Source of the DNA: Dictyostelium discoideum
Lineage: Eukaryota
Direction of reading: 5' to 3'
Assembly: GCA_000004695.1 (NCBI GenBank)
Contig: CM000153.2
Span: 5,248,001-5,312,000 of the forward strand
DNA: 64,000 nucleotides
This document shows, piece after piece, positions 49,647 through 51,535 of this stretch. The translations under genes and the position numbers were made by a program. Below the pieces are notes generated by a model, which was not told the origin of the DNA, did no database searches, and was given only the letters and a program-made list of their open reading frames with translations. Positions within the stretch are counted from its first letter, which is position 1; each line of letters opens with the position of its first letter.

Positions 49647-51535
49647 ATGGATTTCAATCCAGTACCACCACCAAGAGAAACACTCAGAGCTTATTTATCA
49701 AAAAAAGGACATGGTAGGAATTATATATATATAAAAAAAAAAAAAAAAATAAAGATCTAACATATATTAACATTTTTTTTTTTTTTTTTTAAAAATGAAA
49801 AAAGTTGTGAAAAATTGGAAATTAAGATTATTTGTATTAAAACCAGGTTCTAGTTATATGGAATATTTTGTAGATGAAACAGTAAGTTTAATTTTAATAT
49901 TCCAATTTAATTTTATTTTATTTTTTTATAAATCCTGATTTTTTTTTTTTTTATATTTTTTTTTAGAAAGAACAACAACATTTACCACAAGGTAGAGTAC
50001 CATTATATGGTACTAGAGTTATGGAATATGTATATAATAGTAATAATAATCCAAGAGAATTTTGTTTATCAGTAGAGACAGAAAATAAGAATTGGATTAT
50101 TTCAACAGGATCAAAAGCACAACAATTGGAATGGATTGAAGCAATTAAACATGCCATAGAGTCAGCAGTTGAAACAGACGAAATTAAATTACAAAAACAT
50201 AAATCAATTGAAAAACAGTTACAATTGGATGGTAAAAATAAAAATAAAATTCCAGTTTTAAAATTATTATTACTTGGTACTGGTGAATCTGGTAAATCAA
50301 CAGTTGTAAAACAAATGAAAATTTTACATCATAAAGGTTTCTCAAAAGAGGAGGAAGAATTTTATAGGAATTTAATTTATATAAATCTATTGGATGGTAT
50401 GGCATTACTCATTCATGTAATCAAAGAAAATAATATAGAAATTCCACAAGAAACTTTATCAGCAATTAAAAATTATAGTTCATGGTATAGAGTTTATATT
50501 GAAAAAAGAAATAAAAATGGTATTAGAAATAATCCAATTGGTTCAATGATACCAATTTCAATTTTAAATAATAATAAAGATAATAATAATAGCAATAGTA
50601 GTAGTTTAAAAAATAATAGTGGTGGTAGTTCAAGTAGTGAATTAGATAAAAAAATGACACATCTTAGTTTAGATGGATCAACTTGTATAAATTCAAATTC
50701 TGCTTCACCAAATGGACCATCATCATCTACAACAACATCAACAATAAATACACACAATCGTTCAAATAGTGATGGATCAAGTAATAATATATTTAATGTT
50801 CAAGATTTTGGAATTCCACCAATAATTACAAATTATATATCAACGATTTGGTCGGATCCAGTTGTACAATCAGAGGTGATGTTACAAGCTCAAAAGTATC
50901 ATATTAATGAATCCACTCAATATTATTTGAATGAGATAAAGAGAATAGGTAAACCAACATACCAACCTGTAAATTTAGATATCCTAAAATCACGTGCAAC
51001 TACCAATGGTGTGGTTGAAACTGATTTCAATGTAAATGGTGAAGTTATATTTAGAATTGTTGATGTTGCAGGTCAACGTGGTGAAAGAAAGAAATGGATA
51101 AACTTTTTCGATGATGTAACTGCAATAGTTTTCGTTGCAGCTATAAATGAATACGATCAGAAATTGGTCGAAGATAATTGTACCAATAGACTTCATGAAA
51201 GTTTGAATCTATTCGATTCGATTTGTAATGATTCAACTTTTCCAAAGACTTCAATCATATTATTCTTAAATAAAATCGATCTTTTCCGTGAGAAATTAAA
51301 AAGAACCTCAATCAATATTTGTTTTCCAGATTATAATGGTGATCAATCTTATGAAAAATCTTCAAATTATATAAAGAATAATTTTCTTTCAAAGAAAAAA
51401 GGTGGTAATGGTATAAATTCTCAAAATTTTATTTATTTCCATTTCACATGTGCCACTGATACTAAAAGTTTTGAAACAGTTTTTAATTCTGTTAGAGATA
51501 TTATAATTTCAAAAACTTTAGAATTTTATTGTTAA
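49647..51535 (+). CDS. G-protein alpha subunit with an N-terminal PH domain in place of the usual N-terminal helix. Exons 49647..49713, 49805..49881 and 49967..51535, about 571 aa.
   Basis: The PH domain reads MDFNPVPPPRETLRAYLSKKGH|VVKNWKLRLFVLKPGSSYMEYFVDET|KEQQHLPQGRVPLYGTRVMEYVY...EFCLSVETENKNWIISTGSKAQQLEWIEAIKHAI (GxLxKxG..W..R.FVL ... W in the C-terminal helix). The same exon then encodes a complete G-alpha with all five G motifs: KLLLLGTGESGKST (G1), LKSRATTNGVVET (G2 with a switch I Arg), DVAGQRGERKKW (G3), FLNKIDLF (G4) and TCATDT (G5). The introns have GTAGGA and GTAAGT donors, and the phases are consistent. Confidence 0.8.

Follow-up and report, generated by a model that had tools for sequence, protein, structure and literature searches.

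G-alpha-3, the product of Dictyostelium discoideum gpaC, has a PH domain where other G-alphas have the N-terminal acylation stub

The alpha subunits of heterotrimeric G proteins (G-alphas) are textbook membrane proteins, held in place by fatty acylation. N-terminal extensions ahead of the G-alpha core are found in mammalian XL-alpha-s and in the plant XLGs, both of which still work with the G-beta-gamma dimer; these extensions are proline-rich, or cysteine-rich with a nuclear-localisation signal. Among PH domains, the C-terminal one of pleckstrin and those of TAPP1, DAPP1, Akt and GRP1 bind phosphatidylinositol 3,4-bisphosphate (PI(3,4)P2) or phosphatidylinositol 3,4,5-trisphosphate (PIP3), and PH domains that bind G-beta-gamma are also established (GRK2). 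Here, we analysed gpaC, the gene for G-alpha-3 of Dictyostelium discoideum, which lies in a stretch of 64,000 nucleotides (nt) of contig CM000153.2 (positions 5,248,001 to 5,312,000, hereafter the window) and whose product carries a PH domain ahead of a G-alpha. None of the extensions of XL-alpha-s and the XLGs is a PH domain, and they have no relation to that of G-alpha-3 in sequence or lineage.

In comparison to G-alphas of the Gi/o class (G-alpha-o, 6k41_A; G-alpha-i1, 1gp2_A), G-alpha-3 has the same five G motifs and the same catalytic Arg and Gln, along with a helical domain and the helices alpha-N and alpha-5, and Foldseek superposes its model on them with template modelling scores, TM(target), of 0.89-0.93. 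It differs from them in that the MGxxxS/C stub is missing, a PH domain stands ahead of alpha-N, and the helical domain has an insert of about 130 residues; moreover, it has DVAGQ for DVGGQ, and its C-terminal tail, with EFYC as the last residues, is shorter by 2 residues. With the PH domains that bind 3-phosphoinositides it has in common the K-x(n)-K/R-x-R hairpin, the Tyr of strand beta-3 and the Trp of the C-terminal helix. However, its PH domain is joined to a G-alpha and not to a kinase, an adaptor or a guanine nucleotide exchange factor, and VV takes the place of the loop RR of pleckstrin.

The gene occupies positions 49647-51535 of the forward strand and consists of three exons and two short AT-rich introns bounded by GT and AG (Table 1). 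An in-frame TAA at 49641-49643 lies ahead of the start codon at 49647, and the frame of exon 3 is open from PH residue K49 across the whole G-alpha, its upstream limit being the TAG at 49964-49966 at the 3' end of intron 2. The first-pass annotation of this locus had given the same outer coordinates and the same three-exon structure; its gene model was right, except that its 571 residues included the stop codon, the true product having 570. This product is identical to XP_637414.1, EAL63880.1 and UniRef100_Q54KV6, 'G-protein subunit alpha 3 [Dictyostelium discoideum AX4]', and gpaC is the gene name in use for G-alpha-3 (PMC12849267). Both PF00169 (PH) and PF00503 (G-alpha) are on record in the precomputed Pfam annotation of the Q54KV6 cluster and of the orthologues, and UniRef labels the Dictyostelium firmibasis and Polysphondylium violaceum orthologues 'PH domain-containing protein'. 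We regard the identity of the locus as gpaC, together with its PH/G-alpha architecture, as nearly certain. Since the exact protein is public as gpaC/G-alpha-3 and both Pfam domains are listed for it, the fusion is real but not new: gene and domain architecture are already in public databases. Intron 1 holds an in-frame ATG at 49795 (open reading frame (ORF) 49795-49938, MKKVVKNWKL...), so that its retention would give an N-terminus without strand beta-1.

The PH domain (115 residues) replaces only the first roughly 8 canonical residues, that is, the MGxxxS/C myristoylation/palmitoylation stub. In our alignments of G-alpha-3 to 18 canonical animal and fungal G-alphas (A1 and A2), the last part of the PH C-terminal helix is aligned with the canonical MGC(T/C)xS stub. 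A phmmer search against the sequences of the PDB aligned residues 119/120-207 to residues 9/10-95 of G-alpha-o (119-146 to 9-34), with HKSIEKQLQLDG opposite SKAIEKNLKEDG in the alpha-N helix. I129, E130 and D136 of this helix are conserved in at least 90% of the canonical set, and their counterparts in G-alpha-i1 are I19, D20 and D26, which we take to be G-beta contacts. The same order is seen in an AlphaFold2 model (built on a 26-sequence alignment; mean predicted local distance difference test (pLDDT) score 71.7): the PH helix 98-114 is followed by a break of four residues, a helix at 119-139 and strand beta-1 at 145-152. With the G-alpha chains of heterotrimers, 1got_A and 1gp2_A, Foldseek gave a TM(target) of 0.89 and aligned some 25-30 more columns than with crystal forms without alpha-N. 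No acylation motif was found at the N-terminus of G-alpha-3, which reads MDFNPVPPP and has neither Gly2 nor an N-terminal Cys, and the same holds for all eight orthologues and paralogues examined. The first-pass annotation had described both the amphipathic helix and the MGxxxS/C lipidation site as absent, with the PH domain exactly where they should be. The lipidation site is indeed missing, whereas the helix is retained, as seen in the phmmer alignment, in the Pfam match starting at profile position 3 and in the model. Thus, the PH domain stands in place of the acyl anchor and not in place of alpha-N, which follows it.

The PH domain itself is clear-cut. The profile search that had been suggested for it was run, and PF00169 matched residues 16-112 with 49.3 bits (E 7.7e-13), well above the curated cut-off of 25.1. 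In the AlphaFold2 model the PH fold is present, with seven strands within residues 13-95 and the C-terminal helix at 98-114, whose W104 is invariant among the orthologues compared. The top matches to the PH domain among PDB sequences were pleckstrin-2 (1x1g, E 1.9e-11) and the C-terminal PH domain of pleckstrin (1zm0, 2i5c, 1xx0), at E-values of 1.9e-11 to 5e-8; further solved relatives were TAPP1 (1eaz), DAPP1 (1fao), Akt2, Akt3 and GRP1, and the whole set listed extends to 9e-3. The hairpin YLSKKGHVVKNWKLRLFVLK bears the K-x(n)-K/R-x-R signature of the PH subclass that binds 3-phosphoinositides. Its basic residues, K19/K20-G-H22...K25-x-W-K28-x-R30, align to KQGHRRKNWKVR of the pleckstrin C-terminal PH domain, and K19/K20, K25, K28 and R30 are invariant across the 7 species compared. 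The beta-1/beta-2 hairpin from Y16 to K35 is the best-conserved stretch of the PH domain and almost entirely invariant in these species, whose N-terminal 203 residues are otherwise 62-79% identical to the protein of the window.

The remainder of the protein is, by its motifs and its modelled structure, a catalytically complete G-alpha with a Gi/o-like fold. PF00503 matched residues 125-561 (profile positions 3-333) with 366.5 bits and an E-value of 1.6e-109 against a cut-off of 48.8, and identity to the canonical G-alphas is 40-45% over aligned residues. All five G motifs named in the first-pass annotation were found, namely GTGESGKST, switch I with SRATTNG, DVAGQRGERKKW, NKID and TCATDT. Switch II is identical to G-alpha-i/o at 15 of its 19 residues. 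The all-helical domain between G1 and G2 is present in the AlphaFold2 model (helices 175-231 and 333-375). It is interrupted by the low-complexity insert, which appears as the gap between two phmmer stretches (from 207 to 339 in the query and from 95 to 128 in G-alpha-o), differs in length among species and has a pLDDT below 50 at residues 233-320. Foldseek TM(target) values to G-alpha-i and G-alpha-t structures were 0.88-0.93. In the alpha-5 helix, L566 aligns to G-alpha-o L348. The Ala of DVAGQ is the residue that Ras has at this place; Dictyostelium, Polysphondylium, Tieghemostelium and Synstelium share it, and both Acytostelium paralogues have Gly. The terminal Cys of EFYC (residues 567-570, 51521-51532) is not conserved in Acytostelium. 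Prenylation of this Cys was considered and rejected, as EFYC is neither a CAAX nor a Rab motif and the Cys is missing in Acytostelium.

As exon 3 holds only PH residues 49-112 (64 residues), strands beta-1 to beta-3 and the lipid-binding hairpin need both splices. We compared the genomic loci of D. discoideum, D. firmibasis, D. purpureum and P. violaceum. Both introns are at the same codon positions and in the same phases in all four genomes, and exon 2 measures 77 nt in each of them, while the intron sequences are unrelated among the four species; exon 1 has 67 nt in D. firmibasis and D. purpureum and 61 nt in P. violaceum, with its phase conserved. The ratio of non-synonymous to synonymous substitution rates (dN/dS, Nei-Gojobori), calculated for D. 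discoideum against D. firmibasis, D. purpureum and P. violaceum, was 0.09, 0.25 and 0.13 for exons 1 and 2 and 0.08, 0.19 and 0.14 for the PH domain, comparable to the values for the C-terminal G-alpha region (residues 301-570; 0.05-0.06), in contrast to 0.34-0.43 for the low-complexity insert. Furthermore, five JGI contigs of 2.1-2.3 kb from five samples, with identical coding sequences, ragged at both ends and with flanks resembling untranslated regions, code for a 611-residue Polysphondylium-like orthologue (P0004) in which PH domain and G-alpha lie in one intron-less ORF. These contigs look like spliced mRNAs, which would point to a metatranscriptome origin. These comparisons show that purifying selection has kept the PH/G-alpha fusion across Dictyostelia. 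The first-pass annotation had held that the fusion is not an artefact of the splice model because it can be read from a single exon. Intron positions, dN/dS and the intron-less contigs all support that claim; the single-exon argument covers PH residues 49-112 and the entire G-alpha, but strands beta-1 to beta-3 rely on splicing. Four Logan contigs with a 503-residue form (L009-L012) were considered as D. discoideum transcripts and rejected, since intron 2 is kept and they break at homopolymer runs; because intron 2 is still present, they are genomic and uninformative on splicing.

Orthologues were found in D. discoideum, D. firmibasis, D. citrinum, D. dimigraforme, D. purpureum, P. violaceum, Tieghemostelium lacteum and Synstelium polycarpum, and Acytostelium subglobosum has two orthologous paralogues. 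A profile (A3) that spans the PH domain, alpha-N and P-loop region was run against 1.84 billion representative proteins and gave only three matches below 1e-30. Among the 150 best matches, only P0006 and P0256 combine a PH domain with a match to the G-alpha N-terminus. The former, representative of the dictyostelid cluster, scored 392 bits over one continuous stretch. The latter (L013; contig of JGI 3300019032, 2077 nt, 3-1960) has a PH domain at residues 27-125, alpha-N and a G-alpha, which, past what appears to be a frameshift, runs on into a second called gene. Like G-alpha-3, it has the PH domain upstream of alpha-N and G-alpha on one contig, but the two are separated by a linker of about 185 residues that G-alpha-3 does not have. 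Because of this linker and an overall identity to G-alpha-3 of only 22%, P0256 is probably an independent PH/G-alpha fusion of an environmental eukaryote. Among these 150 matches, the PH-G-alpha architecture is limited to Dictyostelia and this one unrelated environmental contig. The other high scorers were considered as fusions and rejected, being tandem G-alphas or multi-PH proteins. Two tandem G-alpha domains are present in P0254, P0259, P0263, P0269, P0271, P0276, P0279 and P0012, the last being an 856-residue protein of Chytriomyces confervae. A homologue search with the N-terminal 203 residues returned only generic Gq/G11-type G-alphas and missed the known orthologues, so that it is uninformative on distribution.

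As alpha-N, switch II, the catalytic residues and alpha-5 are all kept, a loss of G-beta-gamma or receptor coupling does not follow from the sequence. Most likely, G-alpha-3 would still pair with the G-beta-gamma dimer as a heterotrimer and could be coupled to a receptor, since alpha-N, switch II and alpha-5 are retained. Dictyostelium has a single G-beta. The PH domain would lie at the membrane-proximal end of alpha-N, in the position of the acyl chains, and would supply the anchor by means of phosphoinositide head groups. The closest solved relatives and the invariant basic hairpin make a preference for PI(3,4)P2/PIP3 likely, and with such a preference the membrane residence of G-alpha-3 would be conditional on the activity of phosphoinositide 3-kinase (PI3K) and not constitutive. 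We favour, with moderate confidence, such a phosphoinositide-based PH anchor that replaces acylation, with PI3K-dependent membrane residence and with G-beta-gamma and receptor pairing kept. The first-pass annotation had suggested recruitment through phosphoinositides in place of both lipidation and G-beta-gamma; the former is a reasonable reading, whereas the latter is at odds with the retained alpha-N and switch II. A narrower version, which we put forward only tentatively, is that G-alpha-3 is gated by a lipid second messenger: a PI(3,4)P2/PIP3-selective PH domain would be its sole membrane anchor, and the heterotrimer would meet its receptor only on PI3K-active membrane, e.g., macropinocytic cups and leading edges. 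If true, signalling through G-protein-coupled receptors would be coupled to PI3K activity that is already in place, and no G-alpha is known to be wired in this way.

Several observations weigh against a PH-anchored, receptor-coupled heterotrimer. Switch II reads DVAGQ (51062-51076, residues 414-418), DVGGQ being the near-universal G-alpha form, and in switch I N395 aligns to T182 of G-alpha-i1 (Asn for Thr); the switch II residue aligned to S206 of G-alpha-i1 is Gly. The C-terminal tail is 2 residues shorter than ...NLxxCGL(F/Y) and has neither Gly(-3) nor Leu(-2) of the canonical form, so that receptor coupling could be atypical. In the PH domain, the replacement of the loop RR of the pleckstrin C-terminal PH domain by VV means that phosphoinositide affinity or specificity may differ. 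According to the summary in PMC3419119, a PIP3-bead proteomic screen of Dictyostelium cytosol yielded five PH proteins, PhdA, PKB, PhdB, PhdG and PhdI; G-alpha-3 is not one of them, which counts weakly as negative evidence against lipid binding. A D. discoideum transcript spanning exons 1-3 was sought and none was retrieved, and our literature search found no lipid-binding, localisation or G-beta-gamma-binding experiment on G-alpha-3. Genetic work has linked G-alpha-3 to polyphosphate and GrlD (PMC10653871, PMC8262924, PMC12146723), and, in favour of the heterotrimer, g-alpha-3-null, g-beta-null and grlD-null cells all show poor chemorepulsion from polyphosphate (PMC12146723). However, this phenotype is unspecific and common to many G-alpha nulls (PMC12146723), and in an earlier paper the polyphosphate sensitivity of g-alpha-3-null cells was normal.

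Some of these features would also fit a different protein, in which the PH domain has taken the place of the helix for G-beta-gamma as well as that of the lipid anchor, so that G-alpha-3 would be a monomeric, receptor-independent G-alpha recruited by phosphoinositides only. The missing acylation motif, the divergent tail (shorter by 2 residues and without the canonical Gly/Leu) and the switch II changes (DVAGQ and the S206G-type one) are all in line with this, and a bulky PH domain beside alpha-N could hinder the docking of G-beta. We nevertheless consider it quite unlikely: the alpha-N helix is present with its most conserved positions kept, switch II is largely that of G-alpha-i/o, alpha-5 is intact, and the model superposes on heterotrimer-state G-alpha-i with alpha-N included. 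The possible receptor independence raised in the first-pass annotation is likewise not indicated, given the 15 identical residues of switch II, the intact alpha-5 and the TM(target) of 0.89 to heterotrimer chains. Another possibility is that the PH domain serves chiefly in protein interaction or regulation and not as a lipid anchor, i.e., as an additional G-beta-gamma contact as in GRK2, whose PH domain sets a precedent, as an adaptor to receptor or effector, or as an intramolecular autoinhibitor. G-alpha-3 not being in the reported PIP3-bead proteome and the loss of the two loop arginines of pleckstrin speak for it. On the other hand, conservation within the PH domain peaks exactly in the canonical phosphoinositide hairpin and its K-x-K-x-R signature, known 3-phosphoinositide binders (pleckstrin C-terminal PH, TAPP1, DAPP1, Akt, GRP1) are among the best matches, and a G-alpha without acyl groups needs some other membrane anchor; such a role thus seems unlikely to us.

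The PH domain might also be missing from the mature D. discoideum protein, if an internal promoter or a truncated transcript led to a start at Met67 (50021). GenBank AAB88395.1 (1997, 504 residues, 'GTP-binding protein alpha subunit') corresponds exactly to the ORF 50021-51535 and starts at this Met, and no cDNA across exons 1-3 was retrieved for this species. However, Met67 falls in the middle of the PH fold, and the 66 codons upstream of it are conserved, with dN/dS of 0.09-0.25 and the same intron positions in four genomes. Moreover, the intron-less, transcript-like contig of an orthologue has the full PH domain. Any ORF caller would give 504 residues on unspliced DNA, and since the TAG at 49964-49966 closes the frame, the 504-residue form is explained as a product of such calling. 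We regard AAB88395.1 as a truncated annotation, and a start at Met67 as very improbable. The exact 504-residue ORF was also looked up as a called gene and is not on record as one. As a practical warning, constructs based on AAB88395.1 would carry a broken PH domain, and if the tentative lipid-gated model is true, studies built on the Met67 form used such a protein.

With G-alpha-3, an entire lineage has swapped the acyl anchor of a G-alpha for a PH domain and has kept it under purifying selection. If this domain is selective for 3-phosphoinositides, G-alpha-3 would be a natural case of G-protein availability that is conditional on PI3K. Because a g-alpha-3-null strain exists (stock DBS0235986), this model can be tested quickly. 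For Dictyostelium, standard PIP3 reporters as well as PI3K and PTEN mutants are available. The key genetic reference on G-alpha-3 is reportedly that of Brandon and Podgorski from 1997. In a 2025 survey that covers the twelve Dictyostelium G-alphas there is no mention of the PH domain, and gpaC is not listed in the PH-screen papers. Our literature search found nothing joining Galpha3, PH domain and Dictyostelium; its coverage was incomplete, so that a prior mention is possible. This exchange of acylation for a PH domain in a G-alpha, confined to one lineage, is, in our view, a known feature that is under-discussed and apparently unstudied, and not a discovery.

Table 1. Features of gpaC and its downstream neighbours, in window positions
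Feature	Position	Strand	Remarks
Exon 1, gpaC	49647..49713	+	aa 1-22 and first base of codon 23; PH strand beta-1 (RAYLSKKGH)
PH domain coding span	49692..50158	+	aa 16-112, split by both introns; Pfam PF00169 and AlphaFold2
Intron 1, gpaC	49714..49804	+	91 nt, GT..AG, phase 1
Exon 2, gpaC	49805..49881	+	77 nt, aa 23-48; PH beta-1/beta-2 hairpin VVKNWKLRLFVLKPG and strand beta-3
Intron 2, gpaC	49882..49966	+	85 nt, GT..AG, phase 0
Exon 3, gpaC	49967..51535	+	aa 49-570 and stop; remaining PH, alpha-N helix, entire G-alpha
Alpha-N helix	50177..50239	+	aa 119-139, homologous to G-alpha-i/o residues ~9-30; phmmer, A1/A2, AlphaFold2
G1/P-loop GTGESGKST	50276..50302	+	aa 152-160; invariant columns in A2
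N/S/T-rich low-complexity insert in helical domain	50444..50836	+	aa ~208-338, ~130 aa; predicted disordered
Switch I/G2 LKSRATTNGVVET (contains SRATTNG)	50984..51022	+	aa 388-400; catalytic Arg391, Mg-binding Thr394
G3/switch II DVAGQRGERKKWINFFDDV (motif DVAGQRGERKKW)	51062..51118	+	aa 414-432; catalytic Gln418
G4 NKID	51269..51280	+	aa 483-486; A2 alignment
G5 TCATDT	51446..51463	+	aa 542-547; A2 alignment
Alpha-5 helix and C-terminal tail	51461..51532	+	aa 547-570, ...TLEFYC; AlphaFold2 helix 547-569
PPTA-repeat (protein prenyltransferase alpha-subunit) protein gene	51968-53486		downstream of gpaC
UPF0004/radical-SAM (MiaB-like) enzyme gene	54047-55965		downstream of gpaC

Upstream of gpaC, on the opposite strand, ORFs at 47461-48207 (-) and 46660-47325 (-) code for Ser/Thr/Gly repeats and hydrophobic segments; a Pfam scan of the ORFs 46660-47322 (-) and 45895-46527 (+) gave no match. 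A 29-bp tandem duplication (ATATT(T/C)CCTAAACACAAAAATAATAATTT, two copies) at 49544-49601 ends 46 nt upstream of the gpaC start codon and was not found upstream of the D. firmibasis, D. purpureum and P. violaceum orthologues. Two short blocks, at 49327-49345 and 49489-49506 (caaaactagatatcacc; catgttgta.ca.tagt), are common to the upstream region of D. firmibasis (L008), where the AT-rich flanks are otherwise unalignable, and are possible promoter elements. On the downstream side, the order of the PPTA gene followed by the UPF0004/radical-SAM gene is common to D. firmibasis, and in D. purpureum at least the PPTA gene is in the same position.

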